This document shows positions 1 to 18,044 of a stretch of DNA of 19,279 nt, piece after piece. Position numbers and translations under genes: made by a program. Every line of letters starts with the position of its first letter. The first letter of the stretch is position 1. A model generated the notes under the pieces. The model worked only from the letters and a program-made list of their open reading frames with translations. It searched no databases and was not told the DNA's origin. The stretch is from a virus. Taxonomy: Duplodnaviria > Heunggongvirae > Uroviricota > Caudoviricetes. The DNA lies in IMG/VR virus record IMGVR_UViG_2534681764_000019, positions 1-19,279 of that record, one strand, 5' to 3'.

Positions 1-1284
1 TTACTTCTTCGCCTCTGCAACCACTTTACTACCCACGCCGCGGTTATTGTATTCCCACATGCGGTTGTAGTTAGTGTCATTCAGATTGCGCTGTATTTCG
101 TCGTTATCATCTACGCTGCCGGTATTACCCGCAAACGGACGATTAGAGATCACCGCATCGGCCCACGGTTTAGCCGTGTTAAAACCTTCGTTGATGGCGC
201 TATCACGGATCACCACCTGACCGTTGGTATTGGCATCAACATCCAGCGAGCGGCCCAGTTGCGCCACACCATCACCGAAAGCATTGAAACGGCTGTTTAC
301 GGCGAGGAAACCGTAGTAAATGTTGGACAGCGTAGCCGGTGCAAACACATACGCTTCTTGCTGAGTACGTGAGTTCACCACGCGGAATTCGGTGTTATCG
401 AACACCACTGCGCCGCGACCAGAAACGATATCCACATCCCCTTCAATGTAGCTGTTGGTCACCAGCGTACGCGGCTGACGGTTGGTTTCCAGACGGTTCT
501 GCACACCGCTGTTGGTGACAAAGAAGGTGTTCTGACGACCGAGAATGTTAACGTTGTTAATCTGTACCTGGTCACCATCAGTACGCAGTGCCACCGCCGG
601 ATGGTTACCTGCATCTACGCTATCGCCCAGCGTGTTTTCGATGGTCAGATTTTGCAGTTGCAGGCCATTGTTTTGTGACCAGAAGACCGCAGAGCAGAGA
701 ACACCGATACTGTCGCTGCGTTTGCTCTGGCAGCTATCGTACATATACCACGCTGGTTTACCTGGCATATATTTGCCGCGCGGGTTGACGTCGTGACGCC
801 AGTCGGCAGGGCTCATGCCACCATCAAGGGAAAGCCCAATCTTCACATCAATCGGTTTTTCACCTGTACCGTACAGAGTAATTCCACCCGGAGCGGCAGG
901 GACATATACCGTTCCCTGATACTCACCAGGCATCACGGCAATATACTGGCGCTTGTTGGTACGCTTGATAATTGCCGCATCTACCGCCGCCTGAATCGTG
1001 GTATGCGTTACACCTTGAGTGCCCGCCGGGCCGACAACAAAGTCAGGTTGCGCAGGCAGGGTAATCGGGGAAGGATTCCACGCTGCAGCACCTGGTGTCA
1101 GGGATGCAAAATAGTGTTGAGCATCGAAATTCTGCGCTTCTTTTGCCGACAGAATCGGGCGAGAAGAGGTACCAGGCGCGGTTTGATCAGAAGGACGTTG
1201 ATCGGGCGGGGTTGAGCTACAGGCGGTCAGCGTCACGCCAAAAGCCAATGCCAGCGCCAGACGGGAAACTGAAAATGTGTTCAC
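1..1284 (-). CDS. ybhC: YbhC-like lipoprotein (pectinesterase-family / acyl-CoA thioesterase), host gene flanking attB-lambda
   Basis: 427-aa ORF with lipoprotein signal and lipobox (MNTFSVSRLALALAFGVTLTAC); recognised from memory as E. coli ybhC, which lies on the gal side of the lambda attachment site; stop codon at window positions 1-3. Confidence 0.85.
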   Translation of the reverse strand: MNTFSVSRLALALAFGVTLTACSSTPPDQRPSDQTAPGTSSRPILSAKEAQNFDAQHYFASLTPGAAAWNPSPITLPAQPDFVVGPAGTQGVTHTTIQAAVDAAIIKRTNKRQYIAVMPGEYQGTVYVPAAPGGITLYGTGEKPIDVKIGLSLDGGMSPADWRHDVNPRGKYMPGKPAWYMYDSCQSKRSDSIGVLCSAVFWSQNNGLQLQNLTIENTLGDSVDAGNHPAVALRTDGDQVQINNVNILGRQNTFFVTNSGVQNRLETNRQPRTLVTNSYIEGDVDIVSGRGAVVFDNTEFRVVNSRTQQEAYVFAPATLSNIYYGFLAVNSRFNAFGDGVAQLGRSLDVDANTNGQVVIRDSAINEGFNTAKPWADAVISNRPFAGNTGSVDDNDEIQRNLNDTNYNRMWEYNNRGVGSKVVAEAKK

Positions 1285-1330
1285 AGGTTGCTCCGGGCTA
1301 TGAAATAGAAAAATGAATCCGTTGAAGCCT

Positions 1331-1345
1331 GCTTTTTTATACTAA
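1331..1345. other. attL core (B-O-P'), 15-bp lambda att common core
   Basis: Exact GCTTTTTTATACTAA; left flank GTTGAAGCCT is the bacterial B arm, right flank GTAGGCATTATAAAAAAGCATTGCTTATCAATTTGTTGCAACGAACAGGTCACTATCAGTCAAAATAAAATCATTATTTGATTTC is the phage P' arm as I recall it. Confidence 0.9.
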
Positions 1346-1390
1346 GTAGGCATTATAAAAAAGCATTGCTTATCAATTTGTTGCAACGAA

Positions 1391-1422
1391 CAGGTCACTA
1401 TCAGTCAAAATAAAATCATTAT
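1391..1422. promoter_or_regulatory. Int arm-type binding sites (P'1-P'3) in the P' arm
   Basis: Tandem CAGGTCACTAT / CAGTCAAAAT / AAATCATTAT motifs matching the arm-type consensus, directly upstream of the int 3' end. Confidence 0.55.
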
Positions 1423-2489
1423 TTGATTTCAATTTTGTCCCACTCCCTGCCTCTGTCATCACGATACTGTGATGCCATGGTGTCCGACTTATGCCCGAGA
1501 AGATGTTGAGCAAACTTATCGCTTATCTGCTTCTCATAGAGTCTTGCAGACAAACTGCGCAACTCGTGAAAGGTAGGCGGATCCCCTTCGAAGGAAAGAC
1601 CTGATGCTTTTCGTGCGCGCATAAAATACCTTGATACTGTGCCGGATGAAAGCGGTTCACGACGAGTAGATGCAATTATGGTTTCTCCGCCAAGAATCTC
1701 TTTGCATTTATCAAGTGTTTCCTTCATTGATATCCCGAGAGCATCAACATGCAATGTTGTTGGGATGGCAATTTTTACGCCTGTTTTGCTTTGCTCGACA
1801 TAAAGATATCCATCTACGATATCAGACCACTTCATTTCGCATAAATCACCAACTCGTTGCCCGGTAACAACAGCCAGTTCCATTGCAAGTCTGAGCCAAC
1901 ATGGTGATGATTCTGCTGCTTGATAAATTTTCAGGTATTCGTCAGCCGTAAGTCTTGATCTCCTTACCTCTGATTTTGCTGCGCGAGTGGCAGCGACAGG
2001 GTTTGTTGTTATATGGCCTTCAGCTATTGCCTCTCGGAATGCATCGCTCAGTGTTGATCTGATTAACTTGGCTGACGCCGCCTTGCCCTCGTCTATGTAT
2101 CCATTGAGCATTGCCGCAATTTCTTTTGTGGTGATGTCTTCAAGTGGAGCATCAGGCAGACCCCTCCTTATTGCTTTAATTTTGCTCATGTAATTTATGA
2201 GTGTCTTCTGCTTGATTCCTCTGCTGGCGAGGATTTTTTCGTAGCGATCAAGCCATGAATGTAACGTAACAGAATTATCACTGTTGATTCTCGCTGTCAG
2301 AGGCTTGTGTTTGTGTCCTGAAAATAACTCAATGTTGGCCTGTATAGCTTCAGTGATTGCTATCCTCCTGTCTCGGCCTAATCCAAACTCTTTACCCGTC
2401 CTTGGGTCCCTGTAGCAGTAATATCCATTGTTTCTTATATAAAGGTTAGGGGGTAAATCCCGGCGCTCATGACTTCTCCTTCTTCCCAT
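1419..2489 (-). CDS. int: Tyrosine integrase (lambda Int)
   Basis: 356-aa ORF MGRRRSHERRDLPPNLYIRNNGYYCYRDPRTGKEFGLGRD..., matches lambda Int in length and sequence as recalled; adjacent to attL. Confidence 0.95.
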   Translation of the reverse strand: MGRRRSHERRDLPPNLYIRNNGYYCYRDPRTGKEFGLGRDRRIAITEAIQANIELFSGHKHKPLTARINSDNSVTLHSWLDRYEKILASRGIKQKTLINYMSKIKAIRRGLPDAPLEDITTKEIAAMLNGYIDEGKAASAKLIRSTLSDAFREAIAEGHITTNPVAATRAAKSEVRRSRLTADEYLKIYQAAESSPCWLRLAMELAVVTGQRVGDLCEMKWSDIVDGYLYVEQSKTGVKIAIPTTLHVDALGISMKETLDKCKEILGGETIIASTRREPLSSGTVSRYFMRARKASGLSFEGDPPTFHELRSLSARLYEKQISDKFAQHLLGHKSDTMASQYRDDRGREWDKIEIK

Positions 2490-2685
2490 TTCTGATCCTC
2501 TTCAAAAGGCTACCTGTTACTGGTCGATTTAAGTCAACCTTTACCGCTGATTCGTGGAACAGATACTCTCTTCCATCCTTAACCGGAGGAGGGAATATCC
2601 TGCATTCGCGTACCCATCGACGAACTGTTTCAAGACTTCTTGGACGTCGCTGGCGTGCGTTCCACTCCTGAAGTGTCAAGTACAT
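2467..2685 (-). CDS. xis: Excisionase (lambda Xis)
   Basis: 72-aa ORF MYLTLQEWNARQRRPRSLETVRRWVRECRIFPPPVKDGREYLFHESAVKVDLNRP..., overlaps int start as in lambda. Confidence 0.95.
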   Translation of the reverse strand: MYLTLQEWNARQRRPRSLETVRRWVRECRIFPPPVKDGREYLFHESAVKVDLNRPVTGSLLKRIRNGKKEKS

Positions 2686-2712
2686 CGCAAAGTCTCCGCA
2701 ATTACACGCAAG

Positions 2713-2732
2713 AAAAAACCGCCATCAGGCGG
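2713..2732 (-). terminator. Putative intrinsic terminator (leftward) between small ORF and xis
   Basis: Minus-strand hairpin GCCGCC-tgat-GGCGG followed by TTTTTT. Confidence 0.35.
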
Positions 2733-2892
2733 CTGGGTGTTCTTTCAGTTCTTCAATTCGAATATTGGTTACGTCTGCATGCGCTATCTGCGCCCATATC
2801 ATCCAGTGGTCATAGCAGTCGTTGATGTTCTCTGCTTCGATAACTCTGTTGAATGGTTCTCCATTCCACTCACCTGTGACTCGGAAGTGCAT
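2725..2892 (-). CDS. Small hypothetical protein, positional equivalent of the lambda 55-codon ORF next to xis
   Basis: 55-aa minus-strand ORF (MHFRVTGEWNGEPFNRVIEAENINDCYDHWMIWAQIAHADVTNIRIEELKEHPAA) with GGAG-like RBS; same spacing from xis as the small ORF in lambda by my recollection of the map. Confidence 0.5.
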   Translation of the reverse strand: MHFRVTGEWNGEPFNRVIEAENINDCYDHWMIWAQIAHADVTNIRIEELKEHPAA

Positions 2893-2940
2893 TTATCATC
2901 TCCATAAAACAAAACTGGCCGTAGCGAGTTCAGATAAAAG

Positions 2941-2959
2941 AAAACCCGCACTCGGCGGG
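2941..2959 (-). terminator. Putative intrinsic terminator (leftward), about 280 nt downstream of the 80-aa gene
   Basis: Minus-strand hairpin CCCGCC-gagt-GCGGG followed by TTTTCTTTT. Confidence 0.4.
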
Positions 2960-3240
2960 TTCGCATTCGTTCAAATTGCGTTTACTTCTTGGCGTTCTGT
3001 TCATCCATATCGATATACCATGGGTTGCTTCCCTTGGGCATGTTTAACGACTGCTCGCGATAGTATCTGATGCGCTCCATGAAATACTCGCGTGAGTGCT
3101 CAGGTTGCTCTCATGATACCTGCTCAGTGATAACAGGTATGTTAAGGCGCTCTCTGTACTCCATGCCTGATGCTGCAAGGTCAACGTTTACCTTGTTCTG
3201 TTTTTCTTTCGATTTCTCGGCGATGTTATGCCTGACATTG

Positions 3241-3483
3241 TCAACCCGCCTCCTTCTGAACATAACGGTTATAAATCAGTCCCTGAGGGCCATAAGGAAG
3301 CGGGATGTGCAACTCCTCTGGTTCAGAAACTATCCATTCCCCGGCCATCTCCGCTGGAGAGGTAATGATAAGTTGTTTGCTAATAAAAGGACCACTCCTC
3401 TCAACAACAAGCTTACCATCTTCATTAATAAAAGCTTGGATGTCAGGTGTGCTTACACACTTGGTGATGCAGCGTTTGAACAT
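3241..3483 (-). CDS. Hypothetical 80-aa protein with its own promoter (moron-like)
   Basis: ORF MFKRCITKCVSTPDIQAFINEDGKLVVERSGPF...; G-rich RBS before the ATG; extended -10 promoter upstream; no family recognised. Confidence 0.55.
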   Translation of the reverse strand: MFKRCITKCVSTPDIQAFINEDGKLVVERSGPFISKQLIITSPAEMAGEWIVSEPEELHIPLPYGPQGLIYNRYVQKEAG

Positions 3484-3514
3484 TTTGTGTCCCCCCCATT
3501 TTATGTACGGGGTA

Positions 3515-3523
3515 ATTATAACA
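3515..3523 (-). promoter_or_regulatory. Extended -10 promoter (TGTTATAAT on minus strand) driving the 80-aa gene
   Basis: Minus-strand sequence TGTGTTATAATTACC lies about 35 nt upstream of the ATG at 3483 in an AT-rich gap; no good -35 seen. Confidence 0.45.
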
Positions 3524-3610
3524 CATTGAAATATAGTAATATTTGACGTAGATTTCTTTTGATCTATAAGCGATTTTTTAATGCTTTTAAGTTATAAATA
3601 CTTGTTTTCA

Positions 3611-4663
3611 TCACCCATCTTGCTGCGGTGCTACTATTGAAAAGTACTCACACCCTTTAGCCCAAATAGTTTTGATAGTTGTCCAACTGACTGGAACCTT
3701 GATTTCGATTCTCCCGCTGCCGTCACAAGTTTCGCAATCATCATCACCAAAGCATTCCGGGCAGCTTATAAACGTAGTTTCTGAAAATTCACCGGATAGC
3801 ACACCCTTAGCGCCATTCTCAGCGGTTAGTTTCTTCGGCACTATAACCCAACCATCCGGAGTTACCGGAGAGTTGCCCGATGGCTCGTTCAACTTGTAAT
3901 TCTGGCTTACAGGTTGGCTACCCTGAAGCATGGCGGCGAGGCAGGCGTTCCAGCCATGCATATATCCAGTAATAGACCCCATCTTATGCCACTTATCTGA
4001 ATGAAAAGCGCTCATGGCACCAAGATAGTCGATATATGAAATTTGTTTATACCTTTCATTTGGGGCTTTCTTTTCTGATGCAGCTACATCATTCTCTATC
4101 ATCTGCGCTTGCGTGATGCTGTGTCGCGGTATGTCTGAGTTGTTCATTCTCGCATCCACATTAGCATCAAACTCGTTATATTCCATCTCTGCCAGGTCAC
4201 CCCAACTAGCCAGCCCAGGTTCGTTTTCATCACCGAAAGCATCCTTGTCTCGCAGGAAACGATAGCGCAAAGCATCACGCTCTATGCTTAAGCGCAATAC
4301 CTTTTCGGCTGTCGCAGCATCGCGCCAGGTATTGAATCCATCTGGACCTTTAACTTCTTCGCGCAATTGATAAAGCTCTGCGTAGATTTCATCAGGCACA
4401 GATACCGTCGCTGGCGGGGCGGCGTAGACCTCAATAATTCCATTATCAATAGGCCATTCTCCATCCTTGAGGTAGTCACTTGTGCCGTCAACTTGCTGTT
4501 CTGCAATGTGGAATGCACCTATTGGTTTTGCTTCCAGCGATGCCAGAGCAATTCGTGCCAGTTCTTCCGCTTCTTCTGCTGGCAGTACAACGTTGCTACC
4601 AGGTCCGTATGTTTCGCGCCACTGCTTGATTGTCAGTAGTCGCTCTTTGGTCATAGTGGTCAT
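3611..4663 (-). CDS. Hypothetical 350-aa protein with C-terminal CxxC...CxxCxGxG zinc-ribbon motif; last gene of the leftward operon
   Basis: ORF starting MTTMTKERLL with strong RBS AAGGAGAG; ATG is 1 nt after the upstream gene's stop; C-terminus CPECFGDDDCETCDGSGRIEIKVP; no family recognised. Confidence 0.7.
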   Translation of the reverse strand: MTTMTKERLLTIKQWRETYGPGSNVVLPAEEAEELARIALASLEAKPIGAFHIAEQQVDGTSDYLKDGEWPIDNGIIEVYAAPPATVSVPDEIYAELYQLREEVKGPDGFNTWRDAATAEKVLRLSIERDALRYRFLRDKDAFGDENEPGLASWGDLAEMEYNEFDANVDARMNNSDIPRHSITQAQMIENDVAASEKKAPNERYKQISYIDYLGAMSAFHSDKWHKMGSITGYMHGWNACLAAMLQGSQPVSQNYKLNEPSGNSPVTPDGWVIVPKKLTAENGAKGVLSGEFSETTFISCPECFGDDDCETCDGSGRIEIKVPVSWTTIKTIWAKGCEYFSIVAPQQDG

Positions 4664-4664
4664 A

Positions 4665-5156
4665 TCACTCTCCTTTGATGCGAATGCCTGTTGCAATGCT
4701 GTTTATGATGCTGTCAGTGCATGGGGTAGAAAGCTGGGCATCTCCAGCAATTTTCATGACCTCAACATCTGCATATCGAATACCGAGGTGTATCAGACCG
4801 GCTATGCCTGACTTAAGCCGAGCATTTTCCATAAATAGAACTTTTGCCCGCTGTTTTTCTGCTTCAAGCTCAACGCGCAGCTTCCCTACCGTTAGCGCAA
4901 TTTCCTCGTTCTCCTGATCGCGGGATTTGATGTATTGCTGGTTCCTTTCCCGTTCATCCAGTAGTGCCAAAGCAACCTTTGGATTAAAGGCAGCAATAAA
5001 TTCAGCGTTGTTTTTCAGAACGTGTTGCGCAATGGCCTGACTACTTAGTCGGACCTCATAACCACGTGCGCCACGGTGTGGTTTATATGAGTCCCAGTCT
5101 CCCCACGTTGCTTTCTCTGCCGCCTCACGCAGTGCCTGATAGTTAATTTTGCTCAT
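4665..5156 (-). CDS. Hypothetical protein, tentatively Ead/Ea22-like; coiled-coil middle region
   Basis: 163-aa ORF MSKINYQALREAAEKATWGDWDSY...; the N-terminal ALREAAEKAT motif resembles prophage Ead/Ea22-like proteins as I recall them; translationally coupled on both sides. Confidence 0.55.
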   Translation of the reverse strand: MSKINYQALREAAEKATWGDWDSYKPHRGARGYEVRLSSQAIAQHVLKNNAEFIAAFNPKVALALLDERERNQQYIKSRDQENEEIALTVGKLRVELEAEKQRAKVLFMENARLKSGIAGLIHLGIRYADVEVMKIAGDAQLSTPCTDSIINSIATGIRIKGE

Positions 5157-5157
5157 G

Positions 5158-5457
5158 TCACATCACCCTGAATCCGTTGCATTTACGTAAGAAATCGCAG
5201 ATATAGCCCTTCATTTTTTCGTGCCAATCTCGATCATTCCCATTGCACCAACCATCAGGTGGAGTCCAGTTTTCTATCAGAGCAGCCATTTTCTTTGCTT
5301 TCGCCGGAGTAGCTGTTGCGGTATCGCAGTAATGACGAGTGTCAACCAACGCATCCATACCATCGATATCAAGTATGCAAAACCATGTGTGATTCGGAAT
5401 TCCTACAGGTGGTATTTGTTGCCCACGTCGGCGTTTATCAATGAGATATACACTCAC
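5158..5457 (-). CDS. Hypothetical 99-aa protein (GTG start)
   Basis: [36 protein letters not shown]...; GTG start overlaps the upstream stop (GTGA); 1-nt gap to the next gene. Confidence 0.5.
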   Translation of the reverse strand: MSVYLIDKRRRGQQIPPVGIPNHTWFCILDIDGMDALVDTRHYCDTATATPAKAKKMAALIENWTPPDGWCNGNDRDWHEKMKGYICDFLRKCNGFRVM

Positions 5458-5981
5458 TGGTTGCCTCCTTTGCGAAGCTGGGCGGCGAATCTCTCAGCAT
5501 CAACAGCGCTTCCGCAATAGGCGGCGCGAGTCATGGAATCCAATTCGTTGCGGTTTTTTCTTACGTATTCCTTCTGGCTTTCAGCAAACAACTCCACACC
5601 CTGCGCCCGTACTTCAGCCAGAAAAGCATCGGTGTCTGGGGTTTTTATTTCGTTAAGCGCATCACTGAATCCACCACGCTCCATACCTAGCTCTGCTTCG
5701 TAATCGGCATCGAATGCAGCGTCTTTGCAGAACTTCTTCAGCTTTGCATTCTCCGCCGCCAGCGCTGAAAACTTCTCGTGTGCCAACTTAACAGTCGAAT
5801 CAGCCTGCTTAATTGAATCAATCGCTTTCTGCTGGTCTTCGGACAGAGCCGAAATCTTGGCCTCCGCTTCAGCAAATTTACGCACCAGATATTCAGCGTT
5901 TGTTTCGTTAACCTTTAAATCTCGTGGGATGCATTTACCTTTTAGAAAACCATCCATCTCAATTAGTGACATTTGTTTCAT
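5454..5981 (-). CDS. Hypothetical coiled-coil protein (about 175 aa)
   Basis: [36 protein letters not shown]...; ATG at 5981 overlaps the upstream stop as ATGA; GGGAAG RBS; a GTG 18 nt upstream is an alternative start. Confidence 0.55.
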
Positions 5982-6160
5982 TTCTTCCCACTCCGCCACA
6001 TCGCATTCAGATATTTGTTTTGATTTACTGACGGAAAAGAATTTCTCTTAAGCAATTCCTCTCTCGATGGCATTGGCTTTACGCGTTGGCGAATAATCAT
6101 TTCTGCCGGAAGAATGCCGGGATTGTATGCAAGTCCTCTCATGGTAAATTCCTCAGTCAT
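5978..6160 (-). CDS. Small hypothetical protein (about 60 aa)
   Basis: [43 protein letters not shown]...; start overlaps the upstream gene's stop and stop overlaps the next start (ATGA); start choice is uncertain. Confidence 0.4.
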
Positions 6161-6446
6161 TACTGATAGCGCCATAGCGTGAGCGGTAATTACGCAGGCG
6201 CGGGTCAATTTCAGGGAAGTGGGTGTATGTGGCTTTGCGGAATGGTCGGATTGATGTCTGGTAAATTCGCTCTCGTTCTTCTTTCTCTGCAAGCCATATA
6301 CAATGGCGAAATTCCTTTTCCTCTTTCGTTTCCTGCGGTAGCGACATTATCAGGTCGTAGTTTTTTCTGAATTTATCCAGCACCTCCGATACGGAATTGC
6401 CGGAACAGCGGCGCGGGTCATCCGCACCATACTGAGGCGCTGGCAT
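6153..6446 (-). CDS. Hypothetical 97-aa protein
   Basis: [49 protein letters not shown]...; AGGAG RBS 7 nt upstream; 13 nt after the HNH stop. Confidence 0.55.
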
Positions 6447-6459
6447 GATTTTCTCCTGA

Positions 6460-6939
6460 TTAAATTGCGTGAATAGCGTGACGAGGGAAGGGGAGAGTTA
6501 CTGGCTCCTCGTCTGGGTAGATAGGTTTGTTATGTTTGTGCCACTCGACATGACATGACTTGCAGAGCCACATCACATCGGTTGGTTTGCTGTAGTCGCA
6601 TTGGTGCGCCTGTGGTTTACATTCTGATCCGCAGCACTCACATTGTGGTGGTCGGATTAGCTTACCGTCGCGCAAAAAATTACCCACAATGATGTGGGCT
6701 TTTCTTTTCCATGGGTTGCTCTGAATGAACCGCTTTTTGGCTGCGTTACACCGTTCTCTTCCGCGTTCCGATGATTGATATTCTCTCCTTGCTGATACTC
6801 GATGTGGCAATCCAGCGCGTTCTTTGTCGTATTCAGCCAGGCAAGCCCGGCAAGCGGCAGTTAATCCATCTCTGGATGCTCTTCTGATTTGAAAGTCCCT
6901 TTCTTCCTTCTGTTGATGGCATCTTGAGCAGACTTTCAT
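6460..6939 (-). CDS. Putative HNH (His-Me finger) endonuclease with Cys-rich zinc site
   Basis: 159-aa ORF MKVCSRCHQQKEERDF...; CxxC/CC pairs and a C-terminal AH...WLCKSCHVEWH pattern resembling HNH motifs; AGGAG RBS; directly downstream of ssb. Confidence 0.5.
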   Translation of the reverse strand: MKVCSRCHQQKEERDFQIRRASRDGLTAACRACLAEYDKERAGLPHRVSARREYQSSERGRERCNAAKKRFIQSNPWKRKAHIIVGNFLRDGKLIRPPQCECCGSECKPQAHQCDYSKPTDVMWLCKSCHVEWHKHNKPIYPDEEPVTLPFPRHAIHAI

Positions 6940-6948
6940 ATTCAGCTC

Positions 6949-7422
6949 CTAGAACGGAATATCCGAATCGTCGAAGTTCATAGGTGGTTCGCTGTGATTC
7001 CCCTGCTGCTGAGATTGCTGTCTTTGTTGCTGACCGTTATTTCGCTGATGTGAAGACTGTTCATTGCCTCCTTGTTTGCCACCAAGCATTTGCATGGTTC
7101 CACCAACGCCCACGATGACTTCGGTAGTGAACCGATCCTGTCCGCTTTGATCCTGCCATTTTCTTGTCCGCAATTTGCCTTCAAGATAAACCTCTGAGCC
7201 TTTTCGCAGATATTCGCTGGCAATTTCTGCCAGTTTCCCGCTCATTACCACACGGTGCCACTCCGTCTGCTCCTTTTGCTCTCCAGTTTGCTTATCACGC
7301 CATTGTTCTGACGTAGCAACTGTAAGGTTTGCAAATGCCGTTCCTGATGGTGAATATCTGATTTCTGGATCATGCCCAAGGCGACCAATAATGATCACCT
7401 TATTTACGCCTCTGCTTGCCAT
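6949..7422 (-). CDS. ssb: Single-stranded DNA-binding protein
   Basis: 157-aa [26 protein letters not shown]... with Gly/Gln-rich linker and acidic tail ending DDSDIPF, typical of SSB. Confidence 0.85.
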
Positions 7423-8130
7423 TTATGCCGCCTGTTTTAGCTCGTTAACTCTGATGTTCATTACCTGAACGCATTTAGCCTGCGCCTCCTCGTTTCCAGC
7501 CATTAATTGCCAGTCACGCTGATAACGCTCGATGAGTTTTTTCTTGTCAGTTTCTGTTGACGCATAATCGCTGAAGTCTTTCAGGATTTGTTCGCAGTCA
7601 ACCGATGGAGATTTCTGGTTGGTATTTTCTGGTGATGGTTTGTTATCTGATGCTGGGATTGCCCATCCCGGCAGTGATGGAGGGAGCCAGTAAAATCCTG
7701 TTCCATCCTTCAGTTTTGCCCTGTGCCACCCATGCTTTTTATCGAGAGATGTTTGTGCGAAACCTTCCTCAAGGTTATACAGATACCGACCGATTCCCCA
7801 CTGAACGGCAGCACGCTTCATTGCACCTGAACGACCACCTTTGACGGCTTCTACCTGCGTGTTTTCAGCAGCATCCCATTTGGTTACCCATTCGGAATCA
7901 ATCCTGATTGATATGCCGCATTCAACGCCGCCGTTGTTGGGAATATCGCGGTATTCATTGCGCCATCCTGCTTTGCCGCAAACATCGTCCAGGCGTTTCA
8001 TGATTGCCCTGTTCGTGACATAAGCCAGCACCATAGCCCACACTTTTCCATCGCGTGTTTTACCGCTTTGCTGTATTCGCCATTCGATATCTTCAGGGCT
8101 GAATGGCTCATCGAATTTATTCAAATCCAT
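7423..8130 (-). CDS. Single-strand annealing protein, Sak/Rad52-like (replaces lambda Bet/Exo/Gam)
   Basis: 235-aa ORF; central GGRSGAMKRAAVQWGIGRYLYNL motif resembles Rad52/Sak-family annealases as recalled; stop abuts the ssb start (TAA then ATG); GAGGTG RBS. Confidence 0.55.
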   Translation of the reverse strand: MDLNKFDEPFSPEDIEWRIQQSGKTRDGKVWAMVLAYVTNRAIMKRLDDVCGKAGWRNEYRDIPNNGGVECGISIRIDSEWVTKWDAAENTQVEAVKGGRSGAMKRAAVQWGIGRYLYNLEEGFAQTSLDKKHGWHRAKLKDGTGFYWLPPSLPGWAIPASDNKPSPENTNQKSPSVDCEQILKDFSDYASTETDKKKLIERYQRDWQLMAGNEEAQAKCVQVMNIRVNELKQAA

Positions 8131-8138
8131 AATTCACC

Positions 8139-8309
8139 TCAGAATGGACATGGCCCAAGGAAATAACGCTGGTTTAATACTTCGACTCTGGACAAATTAA
8201 GGCATACCCGCATTCCTTCGCGGTCACCATTATGGCGATACCAGAGAGCTTTCTGCGTGTACATGCGTCTCTGTAACTTGCTCTCCTTCACTGTGGTTGC
8301 AAGTGACAT
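8139..8309 (-). CDS. Small hypothetical ORF (56 aa)
   Basis: MSLATTVKESKLQRRMYTQKALWYRHNGDREGMRVCLNLSRVEVLNQRYFLGPCPF with strong RBS GAAGGAG; overlaps the next small ORF in another frame. Confidence 0.35.
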   Translation of the reverse strand: MSLATTVKESKLQRRMYTQKALWYRHNGDREGMRVCLNLSRVEVLNQRYFLGPCPF

Positions 8310-8388
8310 GAATATCTCCTTCGTTACCGATTAATTCTTTCATCTGACGAATGAATTCTTCGTCTGACCAGTTATCTGTAAAACTCAT
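8230..8388 (-). CDS. Small hypothetical ORF (52 aa)
   Basis: MSFTDNWSDEEFIRQMKELIGNEGDIHVTCNHSEGEQVTETHVHAESSLVSP; start overlaps the upstream ORF's stop as ATGA. Confidence 0.3.
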   Translation of the reverse strand: MSFTDNWSDEEFIRQMKELIGNEGDIHVTCNHSEGEQVTETHVHAESSLVSP

Positions 8389-8537
8389 TTCCTGCGATAC
8401 CACGGAAGGTTGATAGCTGATTTCATAGCTTTATTTGCTTCAAGCCACATTTTTGAATCACCAATAAATCTGGCTATTACTGCTTTGTTCTGTGCAGCAC
8501 GAAGCATCTGGTGATTAATGGCTATTTCATTGCGCAT
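8385..8537 (-). CDS. Small ORF (50 aa), Kil-like by position only
   Basis: MRNEIAINHQMLRAAQNKAVIARFIGDSKMWLEANKAMKSAINLPWYRRK with GGAGG RBS; overlaps the 3' end of the cIII-like ORF as kil overlaps cIII in lambda. Confidence 0.35.
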   Translation of the reverse strand: MRNEIAINHQMLRAAQNKAVIARFIGDSKMWLEANKAMKSAINLPWYRRK

Positions 8538-8656
8538 AACGCCTCCAGTTGTTTCTTTGCTGCTCTGATTAATTGTTTAACTCGGCGTGATAATTCAGAT
8601 TCGTGCGGGTAGAAAGCGGACATGACGCCGCTACCCGCGAGCTGAAAGTGCATCAT
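8522..8656 (-). CDS. CIII-like small protein (44 aa), divergent from lambda CIII
   Basis: MMHFQLAGSGVMSAFYPHESELSRRVKQLIRAAKKQLEALCAMK with AAGGAG RBS; resembles lambda CIII (MQYAIAGWPVAGCPSESLLERITRKLRDGWKRLIDIL...) in length, position and central basic helix, as recalled. Confidence 0.45.
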   Translation of the reverse strand: MMHFQLAGSGVMSAFYPHESELSRRVKQLIRAAKKQLEALCAMK

Positions 8657-8731
8657 GGGTAACTCCTTATATTTGATTGCATAACGAAAACGCCTAGAGT
8701 GAAGCGTTATTGGTATGCGGTAAAGCCGCGC

Positions 8732-9043
8732 TTAGGCGGCTGATGTTTCTTCTTTCAGGCTTTCGAGATATTTACGTGGGTCGTCGTAACATTGGCATTC
8801 GCTGTACCAATCCACCCAGCGATCAGTAAGCCCCATCTCTGATAAATCTTCATCGGTAAGGCTCTCATCCCACATCTCAAGGCCGTTAGCATTGCAGTAA
8901 TCAGGCTTGATGTTGTTGTCATACTGAAAGGCGTCATAATCAGCCAGTGCGTCCATCAGGCGAACACCCTCTTCAACACTTGCCACTTCTGCAATGAACG
9001 GTTTCATAGGTACTTGCGGGATATGCCAGACACGTAATTTCAT
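8732..9043 (-). CDS. Hypothetical 103-aa protein, positional equivalent of lambda ea10
   Basis: ORF MKLRVWHIPQVPMKPFIAEVASVEEG... with GGAGGA RBS; an upstream in-frame ATG at 9097 lacks an RBS. Confidence 0.55.
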   Translation of the reverse strand: MKLRVWHIPQVPMKPFIAEVASVEEGVRLMDALADYDAFQYDNNIKPDYCNANGLEMWDESLTDEDLSEMGLTDRWVDWYSECQCYDDPRKYLESLKEETSAA

Positions 9044-9218
9044 ATTTCCTCCGTCAAAAAAATTGCCCTCACACTGGAGGGCAAAGAAGATTTCCAATAA
9101 TCAGAACAAGTCGGCTCCTGTTTAGTTACGAGCGACATTGCTCCGTGTATTCACTCGTTGGAATGAATACACAGTGCAGTATTTATTCTGTTGTTTATGC
9201 TAAAAATAAAGGCCACCA

Positions 9219-9419
9219 TCAGGCAGCCTTGTTATTCTGTTTACCAAGTTCTCTGGCAATCATTGCCGTCGTTCGTATTGCCCATTTATCGACATATTTC
9301 CCATCCTCCATTACAGGAAACATTTCTTCAGGCTTAACCATGCATTCCGATTGCAGCTTGCATCCATTGCATCGCTTGAATTGTCCACACCATTGATTTT
9401 TATCAATAGTCGTAGTCAT
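9219..9419 (-). CDS. ral: Restriction alleviation protein Ral
   Basis: 66-aa ORF MTTTIDKNQWCGQFKRCNGCKLQSECMVKPEEMF...; matches lambda Ral in length and sequence as recalled. Confidence 0.8.
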   Translation of the reverse strand: MTTTIDKNQWCGQFKRCNGCKLQSECMVKPEEMFPVMEDGKYVDKWAIRTTAMIARELGKQNNKAA

Positions 9420-9489
9420 ACGGATAGTCCTGGTATTGTTCCATCACATCCTGAGGATGCTCTTCGAACTCTTCAAAATCTTCTTCCAT
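9403..9489 (-). CDS. 28-codon ORF (lambda orf28 equivalent), highly acidic
   Basis: MEEDFEEFEEHPQDVMEQYQDYPYDYDY with GAGGTGAG RBS; overlaps the ral start; same size and position as the small ORF beside ral in lambda. Confidence 0.45.
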   Translation of the reverse strand: MEEDFEEFEEHPQDVMEQYQDYPYDYDY

Positions 9490-9497
9490 ATCTCACC

Positions 9498-9824
9498 TCA
9501 AATAAGTGGTTTGCTGCCTAATTTCATTTTCTGGCGACCAACACAAGTCACACCCATTTCACTGCGTGGCTTGCTGTACCATGTGCGCTGATTCTTGCGC
9601 TCAATACGTTGCAGGTTGTTTTCAATCTGTTCGTGGTATTCAGCCAGCACCGTAAGGTCTATCGGATTCAGTGCGCTTTCTACTCGTAATTTCGGTTTGC
9701 GATTCAGCGAGAGAATAGGGCGGTTAACTGGTTTTGCGCTTACCCCAACCAACAGGGGATTTGCTGCTTTCCATTGAGCCTGTTTCTCTGCGCGACGTTC
9801 GCGGCGGCGTGTTTGTGCATCCAT
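9498..9824 (-). CDS. N: Antitermination protein N (lambda-type arginine-rich motif; C-terminus appears divergent)
   Basis: 108-aa ORF MDAQTRRRERRAEKQAQWKAANPLLVGVSAKPVNRPILSLNRKPK...; N-terminal part matches lambda N as recalled; about 200-nt leader containing nutL. Confidence 0.85.
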   Translation of the reverse strand: MDAQTRRRERRAEKQAQWKAANPLLVGVSAKPVNRPILSLNRKPKLRVESALNPIDLTVLAEYHEQIENNLQRIERKNQRTWYSKPRSEMGVTCVGRQKMKLGSKPLI

Positions 9825-10022
9825 CTGGATTCTCCTGTCAGTTAGCTTTGGTGATTGGATGGCCGGCGCTGAACCCCGGCTTACTGGTTAGAGCGCCCGC
9901 ACTACCAGTGACGCTGTCTTGAGGCGCAGATTGGTTACTGCTTGCCATGAGCGCTGTTTATACATTGGTCGAGCATCAGCCTGCTCATTCATCCAATCCC
10001 AAAGCCTTCTGCTTTGAATGCT

Positions 10023-10053
10023 GCCCTTCTTCAGGGCTTAATTTTTAAGAGCC
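10023..10053 (-). promoter_or_regulatory. nutL (boxB hairpin plus boxA-like element)
   Basis: Minus strand reads GCTCTTAAAAATTAAGCCCTGAAGAAGGGCAG; boxB GCCCTGAAGAAGGGC is at 10023-10037. Confidence 0.8.
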
Positions 10054-10092
10054 TCACCTTCATGGTGGTCAGTGCGTCCTGCTGATGCGCTC

Positions 10093-10155
10093 AGTATCAC
10101 CGCCAGTGGTATTTATGTCAACACCGCCAGAGATAATTTATCACCGCAGATGGTT
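10093..10155 (-). promoter_or_regulatory. pL promoter with operators OL1-OL3
   Basis: OL1 TATCACCGCCAGTGGTA (10095-10111), OL2 CAACACCGCCAGAGATA (10119-10135), OL3 TATCACCGCAGATGGTT (10139-10155); minus-strand -35 TTGACA and -10 GATACT. Confidence 0.9.
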
Positions 10156-10311
10156 ATCTGTATGTTTTTTATATAGATTTATTTTTTGCAGGGTTGCGTG
10201 GCTTGGGAGGTGATCGAGAGATCTGAATTGCGATGTTTAGTGAGTTGTATCTATCAATTTTTCAATAAATACAATTTGTTAAGGTGTTGTTAGGTGTGTG
10301 GAGCGAGAGGC

Positions 10312-10337
10312 AAAGAAAACCCGGCACTGGGGCCGGG
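10312..10337 (-). terminator. Intrinsic terminator downstream of the ParA-like gene (tImm analogue)
   Basis: Minus-strand hairpin CCCGGC-cccagt-GCCGGG followed by TTTTCTTT, 10 nt past the stop at 10347-10349. Confidence 0.65.
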
Positions 10338-10346
10338 TTGGTTAAT

Positions 10347-11369
10347 TTATAGTTTAACCACCATCCTATCAATGGCTTCTAAGCAAGATTGTTTATATGG
10401 GGCATTAACTTTTACCCTTCTGTTCATAACTCGTACGCTCCCTGTTGGTAGGATCGAAAATGGACATCCTTTAGCAAAGGCAACAACACCAGTTGTCTGA
10501 AAATCTTTAATATTTACCACTCCCTCTTCAATATTTTCGAAGTCGAAAATTTCAGGGTTACTTAGTAATAGTTGCTGAATATCATTATCGATTGATTTCA
10601 GAACTGCGGCATAGGCTGATGCAGGCCCCATATACTGTGTAAGACGGTTTTTTGCGATCATATGCACTTTGGGTAGTGGTCTGCTCACCGCGGTAAGTTT
10701 GTTTGCAAATGCGTAGGATGCATAAATATCAGATGGCAACTTTAATCCATAAATCAAAGAGAAAGCATTTTGAATGGCGCGACGAGAGGAATCATCAGCC
10801 ATAACTGGCAAGATGAGCTTTTCTACAGCAGCTAATGCTATTTGAGTATAAATTGAAAAACTAGGATTACAGTCAATAAATAAAACATCGTACTCATCAT
10901 TTAGATCTTTAATAAGATCATTAATCCAATCAATGATGCTTACCCATGCATTTGTTCCTGGAATCTGCTGATTAGCAAGAGTGTTGATGGCGTTTGCTTG
11001 AAGCTCAAGAAGCGGGTCACCGCATACCAACGATATATTGGCTGGAATATGTTCGTTGAATTTTTTTGGGTGTGTCAAATAATCGTGGGCATCAACAATG
11101 GGTTTTTGATAAGGCGTCGGGAGGCGCATTTGGAAGTAGCCACCCAAAGTACATCTATTATTTATATCATGCCTAGTCAATAAGTTTATGCTTCCATTAC
11201 CTATTAACCCCCCAAGAAAAAGCTCTGACAAGTTTGCCTGTGGGCACACATCAATAACCAACACGCGCTCAAGCGGGTGAATTTCTGCATATCTGCAAAT
11301 AGCTTGAAATGACAGGCTTGTTTTCCCTGTTCCTCCCTTGTTGTTCCATATAGCATATTTCTTCATCAT
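10347..11369 (-). CDS. ParA/MinD-family P-loop ATPase with about 80-90 aa C-terminal extension, in the position lambda uses for rexA-rexB
   Basis: 340-aa ORF MMKKYAIWNNKGGTGKTSLS...; deviant Walker A KGGTGKT, A' motif VLVIDVCPQANLS, Walker B-like VLFIDCNP; AGGAG RBS 6 nt before the ATG at 11369; an in-frame ATG at 11441 has no RBS. Confidence 0.75.
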   Translation of the reverse strand: MMKKYAIWNNKGGTGKTSLSFQAICRYAEIHPLERVLVIDVCPQANLSELFLGGLIGNGSINLLTRHDINNRCTLGGYFQMRLPTPYQKPIVDAHDYLTHPKKFNEHIPANISLVCGDPLLELQANAINTLANQQIPGTNAWVSIIDWINDLIKDLNDEYDVLFIDCNPSFSIYTQIALAAVEKLILPVMADDSSRRAIQNAFSLIYGLKLPSDIYASYAFANKLTAVSRPLPKVHMIAKNRLTQYMGPASAYAAVLKSIDNDIQQLLLSNPEIFDFENIEEGVVNIKDFQTTGVVAFAKGCPFSILPTGSVRVMNRRVKVNAPYKQSCLEAIDRMVVKL

Positions 11370-11404
11370 AAACTCCTGGTTAACGATGTCATTGCTGGTT
11401 AATG

Positions 11405-11486
11405 TTTTACCATTGGTAAAGTGGTGCACCAAGAGTGACACGGTAAACCAAATAGATCAAGACTTTTGGTAAACGATTTACCAGTG
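11405..11486. promoter_or_regulatory. Operator-like inverted repeats between cI and the ParA-like gene
   Basis: TTTACCA-T-TGGTAAA (11406-11420), GGTGCACC (11422-11429), half-site GGTAAAC (11442-11448), TGGTAAA-CGA-TTTACCA (11466-11482); a minus-strand TTGGTG-17nt-TAAAAC promoter-like element overlaps them. Confidence 0.4.
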
Positions 11487-11537
11487 GTGACATCGATAAC
11501 CGAAAAAGACTGCATTTCTGCAACCTGTTTCACACAA

Positions 11538-12254
<717 letters not shown>

Positions 12255-12261
12255 TTAAATC

Positions 12262-12327
12262 TATCACCGCAAGGGATAAATATCTAACACCGTGCGTGTT
12301 GACTATTTTACCTCTGGCGGTGATAAT
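12262..12327. promoter_or_regulatory. OR3-OR2-OR1 operators with divergent pRM and pR promoters
   Basis: OR3 TATCACCGCAAGGGATA (12262-12278), OR2 TAACACCGTGCGTGTTG (12285-12301), OR1 TACCTCTGGCGGTGATA (12309-12325); pR -35 TTGACT (12299-12304), -10 GATAAT (12322-12327). Confidence 0.9.
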
Positions 12328-12342
12328 GGTTGCATGTACTAA

Positions 12343-12552
<210 letters not shown>

Positions 12553-12559
12553 ATAACCC

Positions 12560-12592
12560 CGCTCTTACACATTCCAGCCCTGAAAAAGGGCA
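12560..12592 (+). promoter_or_regulatory. nutR (boxA CGCTCTTAC and boxB GCCCTGAAAAAGGGC)
   Basis: Both motifs present in order just downstream of cro. Confidence 0.85.
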
Positions 12593-12670
12593 TCAAATTA
12601 AACCACACCTATGGTGTATGCATTTATTTGCATACATTCAATCAATTGTTATCTAAGGAAATACTTACAT

Positions 12671-12949
12671 ATGCAACTTACAAGTACTCGCAAGAAAGCG
12701 AATGCAATTACAAGCAACATCCTGAATCGAATTGCTGTACGTGGTCAGCGAAAGGTTGCCGACGCGTTAGGGATTAATGAATCGCAAATTTCGCGATGGA
12801 AAGACAGCTTCATCCCAAAAATGGGAATGCTTCTGGCTGTTCTTGAATGGGGTGTTGAAGACGAGGAGTTGGCGGAACTGGCTAAGCAAGTAGCCAGAAT
12901 GCTGACAAAAGAAAAAGCCCCGAAGAACGGCGAATTCTTCGAGGCCTGA
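12671..12949 (+). CDS. cII: CII-like transcriptional activator, divergent from lambda CII
   Basis: 92-aa ORF MQLTSTRKKANAITSNILNRIAVRGQRKVADALGINESQISRWKDSFIPKMGMLLAVLEWGVEDEEL...; shares the SQISRWK and MLLAVLEWGV core with lambda CII but differs elsewhere; leader TTGTTATCTAAGGAAATACTTACATATG is lambda-like. Confidence 0.85.
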   Translation: MQLTSTRKKANAITSNILNRIAVRGQRKVADALGINESQISRWKDSFIPKMGMLLAVLEWGVEDEELAELAKQVARMLTKEKAPKNGEFFEA

Positions 12950-12983
12950 TGTAGAAAGACTGGATCAATCCACAGGAGTCATT

Positions 12984-13883
12984 ATGACAAATACAGCAAA
13001 AATACTCAACTTCGGCAGAGGTAACTTTGCCGAACAGGAGCGTAATGTGGCAGATCTCGATGATGGTTACGCCAGACTATCAAATATGCTGCTTGAGGCT
13101 TATTCAGGCGCAGATCTGACCAAGCGACAGTTTAAAGTGCTGCTTGCCATTCTGCGTAAAACCTATGGGTGGAATAAACCAATGGACAGAATCACCGATT
13201 CTCAACTTAGCGAGATTACAAAGTTACCTGTCAAACGGTGCAATGAAGCCAAGTTAGAGCTCGTCAGAATGAATATTATCAAGCAGCAAGGCGGCATGTT
13301 TGGACCAAATAAATACATCTCAGAATGGTGTATCCCTCAAAACGAGGGAAAATCCCCTAAAACGAGGGATAAAACATCCCTCAAATTGGGGGATTGCTAT
13401 CCCTCAAAACAGGGGGACACAAAAGACACTATTACAAAAGAAAAAAGAAAAGATTATTCGTCCGAGAATTCTGGCGAATCCTCTGACCAGCCAGAAAACG
13501 ATCTTTCTGTGGTTAAACCGGATGCTGCAATTCAGAGCGGCAGCAAGTGGGGAACAGCAGAAGACCTGACCGCCGCAGAGTGGATGTTTGACATGGTGAA
13601 GACCATCGCGCCATCAGCCAGAAAACCGAATTTTGCTGGGTGGGCTAACGATATCCGCCTGATGCGTGAACGTGACGGACGTAACCACCGCGATATGTGT
13701 GTGCTTTTCCGCTGGGCCTGCCAGGACAACTTCTGGTCCGGTAACGTGCTGAGTCCGGCCAAACTCCGCGACAAGTGGACCCAGCTCGAAATCAACCGTA
13801 ACAAGCAACAGGCAGGCGTGACAGCCAGCAAACCAAAACTCGACCTGACAAACACTGACTGGATTTACGGGGTGGATTTATGA
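12984..13883 (+). CDS. O: Replication initiator O
   Basis: 299-aa ORF MTNTAKILNFGRGNFAEQERNVADLDDGYARLSNMLLEAY..., lambda O as recalled; contains the ori iterons. Confidence 0.95.
   Translation: MTNTAKILNFGRGNFAEQERNVADLDDGYARLSNMLLEAYSGADLTKRQFKVLLAILRKTYGWNKPMDRITDSQLSEITKLPVKRCNEAKLELVRMNIIKQQGGMFGPNKYISEWCIPQNEGKSPKTRDKTSLKLGDCYPSKQGDTKDTITKEKRKDYSSENSGESSDQPENDLSVVKPDAAIQSGSKWGTAEDLTAAEWMFDMVKTIAPSARKPNFAGWANDIRLMRERDGRNHRDMCVLFRWACQDNFWSGNVLSPAKLRDKWTQLEINRNKQQAGVTASKPKLDLTNTDWIYGVDL
13332..13460. repeat. ori-lambda: four iterons plus AT-rich unwinding region inside O
   Basis: ATCCCTCAAAACGAGGGA (13332-13349), ATCCCCTAAAACGAGGGA (13352-13369), ATCCCTCAAATTGGGGGA (13376-13393), ATCCCTCAAAACAGGGGGA (13399-13417), then ATTACAAAAGAAAAAAGAAAAGATTATT. 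Confidence 0.9.
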
Positions 13884-14581
13884 AAAACATCGCCGCACAG
13901 ATGGTTAACTTTGACCGTGAGCAGATGCGTCGGATCGCCAACAACATGCCGGAACAGTACGACGAAAAGCCGCAGGTACAACAGGTAGCGCAGATCATCA
14001 ATGGTGTGTTCAGCCAGTTACTGGCAACTTTCCCGGCGAGCCTGGCTAACCGGGACCAGAACGAACTGAACGAAATCCGCCGCCAGTGGGTGCTGGCTTT
14101 CCGGGAAAACGGGATCACCACAATGGAACAGGTTAACGCAGGAATGCGCGTAGCCCGTCGGCAGAATCGACCATTTCTGCCATCACCCGGGCAGTTTGTT
14201 GCATGGTGCCGGGAAGAAGCATCCGTTATCGCCGGACTGCCAAACGTCAGCGAGCTGGTTGATATGGTTTACGAGTATTGCCGGAAGCGAGGCCTGTATC
14301 CGGATGCGGAGTCTTATCCGTGGAAATCAAACGCGCACTACTGGCTGGTTACCAACCTGTATCAGAACATGCGGGCCAATGCGCTTACTGATGCGGAATT
14401 ACGCCGTAAGGCCGCAGATGAGCTTGTCCATATGACTGCGAGAATTAACCATGGTGAGGCGATCCCTGAACCAGTAAAACAACTTCCTGTCATGGGCGGT
14501 AGACCTCTAAATCGTGCACAGGCTCTGGCGAAGATCGCAGAAATTAAAGCTAAGTTCGGACTGAAAGGAGCAAGTGTATGA
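13880..14581 (+). CDS. P: Replication protein P (DnaB helicase loader)
   Basis: 233-aa ORF MKNIAAQMVNFDREQMRRIANNMPEQYDEKPQVQQV..., lambda P as recalled; start overlaps the O stop. Confidence 0.95.
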   Translation: MKNIAAQMVNFDREQMRRIANNMPEQYDEKPQVQQVAQIINGVFSQLLATFPASLANRDQNELNEIRRQWVLAFRENGITTMEQVNAGMRVARRQNRPFLPSPGQFVAWCREEASVIAGLPNVSELVDMVYEYCRKRGLYPDAESYPWKSNAHYWLVTNLYQNMRANALTDAELRRKAADELVHMTARINHGEAIPEPVKQLPVMGGRPLNRAQALAKIAEIKAKFGLKGASV

Positions 14582-14868
14582 CGGGCAAAGAGGCAATTAT
14601 TCATTACCTGGGGACGCATAAGAGCTTCTGTGCACAAGACGTTGCCGCGGTAACAGGCGCAACCGTAACCAGCATAAATCAGGCTGCGGCTAAAATGGCG
14701 CGGGCAGGAATCCTGGTCGTTGATGGTAAGGTCTGGCGAACGGTGTATTACCGGTTCGCTACCAGAGAAGAACGGGAAGGAAAGGTGAGCACGAATCTGA
14801 TTTTTAAGGAGTGTCGCCAGAGTGCCGCGATGAAACGGGTATTGGCGGTATATGGAGTTAAAAGATGA
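14578..14868 (+). CDS. ren: Ren protein
   Basis: 96-aa ORF MTGKEAIIHYLGTHKSFCAQDVAAVTGATV..., lambda Ren as recalled; overlaps the P stop. Confidence 0.9.
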   Translation: MTGKEAIIHYLGTHKSFCAQDVAAVTGATVTSINQAAAKMARAGILVVDGKVWRTVYYRFATREEREGKVSTNLIFKECRQSAAMKRVLAVYGVKR

Positions 14869-14893
14869 CCATCTACATCACTGAGCTAATAAC

Positions 14894-14922
14894 AGGCCTG
14901 CTGGTAATCGCAGGCCTTTTTA
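14894..14922 (+). terminator. tR2-like intrinsic terminator between ren and ninB
   Basis: Hairpin AGGCCTGC-tggtaatc-GCAGGCCT followed by TTTTTATTT. Confidence 0.75.
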
Positions 14923-14941
14923 TTTGGGGGAGAGGGAAGTC

Positions 14942-16251: not shown

Positions 16252-16421
16252 TGCGATGTTATCGGTGCGGTGAATGCAAAGAAGATAACCGCTTCCGACC
16301 AAATCAACCTTACTGGAATCGATGGTGTCTCCGATGTGAAAGAACACCAACAGGGGTGTTACCACTACCGCAGGAAAAGGAGGACGTGTGGCTAGACAGC
16401 GACGAAGTATCACCGACATAA
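16248..16421 (+). CDS. ninD: NinD (small Cys-rich protein)
   Basis: 57-aa [60 protein letters not shown], translated by hand (below the ORF-track cutoff). Confidence 0.75.
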
Positions 16422-17873: not shown

Positions 17874-17879
17874 AACGTG

Positions 17880-17908: not shown

Positions 17909-17920
17909 ATTGGCATAAGC

Positions 17921-17960: not shown

Positions 17961-17964
17961 ATTT

Positions 17965-18039: not shown

Positions 18040-18044
18040 AATAT

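Follow-up and report, generated by a model that had tools for sequence, protein, structure and literature searches.

Near the left end of a lambda-like prophage, a small gene lies between xis and a long leftward operon, behind an AT-rich gap and ahead of a hairpin. The locus raises the question of whether this gene forms a self-contained unit of expression, of the kind known as a moron, and of what the DNA between gene and hairpin represents. The locus belongs to IMG/VR record IMGVR_UViG_2534681764_000019 (Caudoviricetes; positions 1 to 19,279), and the window is this whole stretch of 19,279 nucleotides. A preliminary description had proposed an isolated gene of 80 amino acids (aa) with its own promoter, followed by about 280 nt without a convincing open reading frame (ORF) and by a terminator. 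From the comparisons described below, the region is probably a mobile two-gene accessory cassette of lambdoid prophages, with its own promoter and a dead homologue of the DNA polymerase III theta and P1 Hot genes. The elements on which this reading draws are the following:

3484-3598, minus strand: AT-rich intergenic region that travels with the gene, including the 5' untranslated region (UTR), delimited by homology with locus L045 and a GC content of 0.33
3545-3553, minus strand: 9-bp box ATCTACGTC, at about -45 to -37 from the putative transcription start
3523-3515, minus strand: extended -10 element TGTTATAAT, with the TG at 3523-3522 and the hexamer at 3520-3515
3241-3483, minus strand: gene of the 80-aa protein WP_024167011.1, family phrog_9613 (ORF list, family match and NCBI annotation)
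2982-3263, minus strand: DNA polymerase III theta / P1 Hot pseudogene (coordinates of the NCBI Prokaryotic Genome Annotation Pipeline, PGAP; PF06440, PHROG 1105)
3255-3249 and 3238-3236, minus strand: Shine-Dalgarno sequence AAGGAGG and native theta ATG
3111-3113, minus strand: in-frame TGA in place of the conserved theta/Hot Arg codon (VAREQPEH)
2962-2932, minus strand: intrinsic-terminator-like hairpin GAACCCGC-CGAGT-GCGGGTTT followed by TCTTTTATCT

The promoter region and the 80-aa gene

The upstream leftward ORF ends at 3611, where the preliminary description had placed the end of the leftward operon, and the 126-nt gap that follows (3484-3610) is AT-rich as described there, with a GC content of 0.33 against 0.46-0.50 on either side. 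Within this gap, the extended -10 that had been noticed is present on the minus strand, as TGTTATAAT at 3523-3515 carries TGn directly before a TAnnnT hexamer, which would place the start of transcription near 3508. No -35 element is recognisable in the window, and its position is not conserved among the homologous loci.

The comparison of promoter regions covered eight divergent loci from E. coli-type and Pectobacterium prophages, situated near xis-int or in the nin region, with 45-69% identity between the proteins and saturation at synonymous sites. Every homologue has a non-coding gap of 126-595 nt in front of it, and the core that can be aligned consists of the box ATCTACGTC, 20-21 variable bases, T(G/A)TGnTAT(A/G)(A/C/T)T, a leader of 27-41 nt with a Shine-Dalgarno sequence, and the ATG. 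The TGnTAnnnT arrangement is retained at all eight loci, with TATAAT, TATGCT, TATGAT or TATATT as hexamer; the TG, T-12, A-11 and T-7 are invariant, and the distance from the box to the -10 is constant in 8/8. While the core from -50 to -7 is 68-82% identical, the 5' UTR and the DNA beyond -100 are at 37-55%. A pattern derived from this core hit 31 sites in IMG/VR, 30 of which belong to the family of the 80-aa gene (the gene is visible downstream in 29 and one is cut by the contig end), and in representative genomes, 596 Gb in all, it picked up only 7 unrelated sites. Since the conserved core recurs in different backgrounds and positions, the promoter region moves with the gene. At locus L013 the neighbouring gene upstream has the opposite orientation, so that no upstream operon can feed the gene there. 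As far as sequence comparison can tell, the 80-aa gene appears to carry its own promoter.

The box ATCTACGTC has a single exact copy in the window and is found nowhere else in the prophage, and the factor that binds it is therefore probably no phage regulator acting elsewhere there. Pectobacterium-type loci have the box twice, the second copy being 21 bp farther upstream, a spacing of two helical turns. A literature search for the box string returned primers only, and no convincing fit to the MetJ, PhoB, LytTR, CRP and Mar boxes is apparent.

A G7 tract in the 5' UTR (3497-3491, minus strand) constitutes a Shine-Dalgarno-like element whose length differs among relatives, being G6 in most of them, G7 in the window, L038 and L042, and GGGGAG in a minor lineage. 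With G6, an upstream ATG (3499-3497) comes into frame (MGGHK-MFKR), and gene callers can also move the start up to an ATG within the -10, which lengthens the ORF to 94 aa. This variation may stem from sequencing noise, or the Shine-Dalgarno-like element may truly be polymorphic in length.

The 80-aa gene itself, announced as an isolated one, is borne out as an ORF at 3241-3483, although it does not stand alone, as its 3' end is overlapped by 23 nt by the theta/Hot pseudogene, the other gene of the cassette. Its product matches phrog_9613, a PHROG family without assigned function, from end to end (E = 1.7e-49), as the distant Pectobacterium-type homologues likewise do, and it has zero matches in Pfam, NCBIfam and PADLOC. 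No match was obtained by tblastn against 50,697 deposited phage records; protein searches of 5.8 and 1.8 billion sequences yielded only about 12 homologue clusters, and an exhaustive HMMER search yielded 10 true relatives and one spurious repeat protein (P0134). The clusters comprise E. coli alleles, a 69% relative (P0125/L045), and relatives at 45-52% that include Pectobacterium carotovorum. As all relatives begin with MF..C (ML..C in P0135), the start codon is the ATG at 3483 and not that of the annotated 94-aa version, which begins inside the -10. Comparison with L045 gives a ratio of non-synonymous to synonymous substitution rates (dN/dS) of 0.19 at a dS of 1.3, from which it follows that the gene encodes a real protein under purifying selection, and the reading frame is intact in nearly all copies.

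An AlphaFold (AF2) model built on an alignment of 8 sequences has six beta strands, with a predicted local distance difference test score (pLDDT) of 81 and a predicted template modelling score (pTM) of 0.69. The window protein has an isoelectric point (pI) of 5.3 and no hydrophobic segments, and the family members are all acidic (pI 4.9-6.1) and equally devoid of such segments. The prediction is thus of a soluble, acidic protein with six beta strands, and a soluble modulator that binds other proteins fits such an acidic family better than a DNA-binding or membrane protein does. The best fold matches are PilZ and split beta-barrel proteins, and the cyclic di-GMP motifs RxxxR and D/NxSxxG are absent from the 80-aa protein. 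Autoregulation by the product was considered and is held to be unlikely because of the acidity of the whole family.

Among the E. coli copies, codon 10 (3454-3456) encodes Val in the window allele and Gly in every other one. Most differences between close alleles are non-synonymous (Q16H, P32H, L58W, I60T, P61Q and others), and the recent variation of the gene within E. coli looks relaxed in comparison with its deep divergence.

The theta/Hot gene and the terminator

The 280 nt behind the small gene were thought to lack a convincing ORF, a view that has to be abandoned, as they are occupied by a homologue of theta and Hot at 2982-3263. The frame from 3263 to 2982 translates as MFRRRRVDNVRHNIAEKSKEKQNKVNVDLAASGMEYRERLNIPVITEQVS*EQPEHSREYFMERIRYYREQSLNMPKGSNPWYIDMDEQNAKK, and its N-terminal 50 codons match the Pfam family PF06440 (DNA_pol3_theta) with E = 3.4e-15 and 56.0 bits, above the cut-off of 34.6. 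Both halves of the frame match PHROG 1105. When the stop is repaired to Arg, the protein matches P1 Hot (PDB 1SE7/2IDO) with E = 1.3e-29 and E. coli theta with E = 5e-16. The alignment of the tail ORF with P1 Hot and HolE spans its whole length and includes the KVNVDLAASG and REQPEH motifs, and intact 85-aa relatives with 70-79% identity are common in enterobacterial prophages. Unlike these, the window gene has two breaks, a 1-nt deletion at or after codon 3 and a TGA in place of the Arg, and with 91.4 bits it falls below the NCBIfam cut-off of 97 for host theta. The genomic position of theta/Hot differs as well: the window copy is in the ea region behind the small gene, those of L003-L005 are in the nin region, and that of P1 is among the late genes.

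The intact relatives begin with MSGHNIAEKS at an ATG preceded by a strong Shine-Dalgarno sequence. In the window the native ATG is out of frame, as alignment with their DNA places the loss of one base after ATGTCAGG, between 3231 and 3230, and an intact frame of about 76-85 codons from the native theta start is not found. The TGA takes the place of the Arg of the conserved REQPEH motif, so that the deletion and the in-frame stop amount to two lesions in the theta/Hot gene. NCBI PGAP already lists the gene as a pseudogene of 'DNA polymerase III subunit theta' that has an internal stop. Among 33 related copies with data, the 1-nt deletion is present in 33/33 and the TGA in 29/33, the other 4/33 having CGA and forming a lineage of about 96% identity. 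Further lesions are a C-terminal frameshift in P0002, frameshifts in L008, and insertion sequence (IS) elements in L009 and L010. On the evidence of these sequences, the pattern of copies is that of a decaying, hitch-hiking gene and not of a recoded one, and the truncated theta product is not expected to bind or stabilise the epsilon proofreading subunit. As to the two IS elements, an IS3 sits exactly between the 80-aa gene and theta in L009, and an IS100 takes the place of the 80-aa gene in L010.

A plausible counterpart of the terminator expected behind the tail lies at 2962-2932, where the hairpin has a folding energy of -12.4 kcal/mol (z = -2.4). Of the two hairpins that follow ea8.5 in lambda, the first is replaced in the window by a different hairpin in the same place; homology with lambda begins at window 2947, that is, at the 3' arm and base of the stem beside the T-tract. 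Other members of the family have no terminator directly after the small gene. The second of the hairpins between ea8.5 and orf55 in lambda (L007 1587-1674) is weakened in the window (2893-2931), where GCGGGTT has become GCCAGTT, and a further terminator hairpin of -13.6 kcal/mol follows orf55 just before xis (2717-2734, minus strand).

Mobility of the cassette and competing explanations

The module that is shared among E. coli prophages extends from 2698 to about 3880-3935; besides the 80-aa gene and the theta pseudogene it takes in orf55 and the stretch of the upstream gene that encodes its C-terminal part. Of 5426 complete E. coli genomes, 101 contain it. At four chromosomal sites with different integrases the prophage copies of the module are at least 96% identical: the prophages at ybhC have a lambda int, those at two further sites TorI-type excisionases, and those beside sbcB another integrase. 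Nothing was found when one genome of each species was scanned with a peptide pattern; together with the seven chance hits of the core pattern, this indicates that the module is strain-variable and absent from species representatives. The gene is located beside xis-int in the window and in Pectobacterium prophages, and in nin regions in L006/L045 and L015/L016. In the nin region of L045 an equivalent promoter region is followed by a 79-aa gene and then by a theta homologue, itself with a 12-nt deletion and a truncated C-terminus, and homology with the window runs from 3598 (13 nt past the upstream stop) to 3117. It follows from this order that the ancestral unit of the E. coli lineage comprised the promoter, the small gene and theta/Hot.

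Two further arrangements were observed. In the Pectobacterium-type loci L012-L014, L018 and L019 a conserved 158-aa phrog_1636 protein comes after the small gene, with xis and int immediately behind it; as no obvious terminator lies in between, the conserved promoter might also feed xis-int there. In P0127, P0129 and P0130, the C-terminus of the 80-aa protein forms part of a fusion ORF together with orf55 or the upstream gene, and the orf55 fusion has its joint near a shared GEW motif.

Taken together, a cassette would be arranged on the minus strand as an AT-rich region with a sigma-70 extended -10 and the ATCTACGTC box, the 80-aa gene, theta/Hot and the terminator, with theta/Hot presumably coupled translationally to the 80-aa gene. 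The promoter would fire autonomously, with its start near 3508, and would probably be modulated by a factor that binds the box, a host protein being a likelier candidate than the acidic product. Transcripts from pL may additionally read the cassette. The small acidic product, putatively a beta-barrel protein kept by purifying selection, might act by binding a protein of the host or of a competing phage, while theta/Hot is dead in the window lineage owing to a frameshift at codon 3 and a nonsense mutation at codon 43 of 85. According to Chikova and Schaaper (2007), as cited in PMC7556043, P1 hot is expressed both in lysogens and lytically, and by analogy this fits a promoter active in the lysogen before such a cassette.

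Morons of the HK97 gp15 type, in the definition of Juhala and Hendrix, are recognised by their own promoter and terminator, a deviant GC content, presence or absence among relatives, and expression from the prophage (PMC3594210). The cassette resembles them in having a promoter-like element at the 5' side and a terminator-like hairpin at the 3' side, in being absent from lambda, and in its presence or absence among relatives, at two genome positions and in many prophage backgrounds; at the level of sequence and comparison, a promoter of its own can be assigned to it as well. It differs from them in that it lies in the early-left variable region and not inside the late operon, and in that it replaces ea8.5, with no added DNA between two conserved genes. 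Of the moron-like unit initially proposed, the putative promoter of its own stands, being present at 8/8 loci, and the single-gene unit does not; nor does the coding part share the deviant GC of morons.

Several observations weigh against an autonomous cassette of the kind outlined. Its coding GC (0.46-0.475) does not depart from that of the neighbours (0.44-0.52). A lone TGNTATAAT in the window is within chance expectation (0.67 expected; at least one in 102 of 200 shuffles), and a consensus scan called no -35/-10 promoter on the minus strand. No terminator separates the upstream operon from the cassette, which is thus not insulated from pL, and N-antiterminated read-through from pL is to be expected as well. 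As lambda has a terminator in the same slot, the one in the window may belong to the lambda-like backbone and mark a mosaic junction. The downstream partners also vary, being theta in the E. coli types, the 158-aa phrog_1636 protein in Pectobacterium and an HNH protein in L015, and the constant unit across lineages is the promoter and the small gene only.

These points would suit an alternative in which there is no autonomous unit at all, the 80-aa gene being a delayed-early gene of the N-antiterminated pL operon, and TGTTATAAT and the conserved block serving, for example, as a linker for mosaic recombination and not as a working promoter. The chance occurrence of TGNTATAAT, the missing -35 and consensus call and the lack of an upstream terminator would then find their place, as would the fact that homology among E. 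coli prophages crosses the gap into the C-terminus of the upstream gene, to about 3880-3935. However, conservation is concentrated in the -50 to -7 core, specifically on the box and on the TG, T-12, A-11 and T-7, with drift in the spacers, in the 5' UTR and beyond -100. The block also precedes the nin-region copies and that of L013, with its neighbour on the opposite strand; we hold this alternative to be unlikely. The same block has a plus-strand counterpart, a candidate divergent promoter (TTGAAA-17-TAGATT, 3526-3554) whose RNA would be antisense to the upstream gene, which a consensus scan flags with 9/12 matches and whose hexamers overlap the conserved TTTCAA and ATCTA. In other lineages, though, these hexamers degrade (ATGAAG, ATTAAA, ATGGAA; TAGAAA, TAGGTT) while neither the CTACGTC core nor the minus-strand TGnTAnnnT is disrupted, and one such site is fewer than the 2.7 expected by chance for the region, so that very little credence is due to a promoter in this direction. 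A bolder version of the mobile cassette regards the ATCTACGTC boxes as the operator of an unrecognised regulator that switches it on or off in prophages throughout Enterobacterales, and the small protein as a new inhibitor of a host protein, perhaps in the Pol III proofreading module in view of the repeated linkage with theta/Hot; this is decidedly doubtful.

Turning to the tail, one might suppose that theta/Hot is still functional, either through initiation at ATG 3263 and read-through of the TGA or as an active N-terminal fragment of 50 aa. The TGA is, after all, shared by 29/33 copies in several prophage types, ATG 3263 opens an in-frame stretch of 93 codons that PGAP uses, and the metagenomic variant P0001 has TGG (Trp) at the site of the TGA. 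Yet the copies are 98-100% identical, which makes the shared TGA an identity by descent; a strong Shine-Dalgarno sequence precedes the native ATG, which is out of frame, while ATG 3263 has none and lies inside the 80-aa gene; independent extra lesions have arisen in P0002, L008, L009, L010 and L045; and the stop deletes the C-terminal half of a three-helix protein. A functional theta/Hot is accordingly judged highly improbable. The least credible proposal of all, made in the preliminary description, is that the 280-nt tail is a small RNA or a decayed lambda ea8.5. For the latter only the position speaks, as the distance from the end of the frame to the terminator, about 20 nt, matches that of lambda ea8.5, and a long 3' region with a terminator could in principle give rise to a 3'-derived small RNA. 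The theta/Hot homology accounts for the whole tail, however, and the 32-codon fragment at 2982-3080 that had been offered as ea8.5 is the C-terminus of theta. A tblastn search with Ea8.5 against 2900-3650 gave at best E = 0.085 over 48 residues with 19% identity, and nothing elsewhere in the window; Rfam 15 had no match at E <= 1 on either strand of 2600-3800. The coincidence with the ea8.5 stop is real, being due to the shared slot of the downstream terminator, and an ancestry in ea8.5 is rejected.

Read as a mobile two-gene cassette, the locus is a fairly ordinary case of phage mosaicism that leaves current ideas on this process unchallenged. Its two modest novelties are an uncharacterised small protein, predicted to be a beta-barrel, and a mobile promoter that is specific to the family and has a 9-bp box. 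Should the promoter work as proposed, promoter and gene would constitute one mobile unit that is shared from the early-left to the nin region by lambdoid prophages of different genera, and that carries a candidate regulatory box. The locus also illustrates that a dead theta/Hot gene with two lesions can spread across many prophages by hitch-hiking on a selected neighbour. For phrog_9613, the analysis corrects the start codon and provides a structure model that can be used and a promoter that can be tested.

The ea8.5 slot and the neighbouring genes

The window represents the left end of a lambda-like prophage at the E. coli lambda attachment site and is 100% identical to NZ_CP141863.1, from a pigeon isolate. 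The genes between the chromosome and the cassette are these:

1-1284, minus strand: ybhC
1419-2489, minus strand: lambda-type int
2467-2685, minus strand: xis
2725-2892, minus strand: homologue of lambda orf55/lambdap35

From att to window 2947 (lambda 29340) the sequence is 98% homologous to lambda; the homology then ends and returns only as patches in the ea22-like gene. From this break it follows that the cassette sits in a hyper-variable slot that is filled by ea8.5 in lambda, bordered by ea22-like genes on one side and by orf55-xis-int on the other. The tail frame and lambda ea8.5 thus share an identical slot, with the same short distance to a hairpin and T-tract, but there is no similarity between the proteins, and homology with lambda sets in only from the base of the terminator stem.

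On the plus strand, an ORF of 158 aa (3070-3546) has no family match in PHROG or Pfam and was taken as spurious. The 361-aa upstream ORF (3611-4696, minus strand) is a mosaic, which PGAP divides between a DUF551 fragment and a hypothetical protein of 262 aa (3611-4399). The final 90-110 residues of the ORF contain a DnaJ-like CxxCxGxxxCxxCxGxG zinc motif, and this C-terminus is common to genes that are elsewhere labelled as DnaJ, Ea22-like, DUF550, DUF551 or dATP/dGTP pyrophosphohydrolase.

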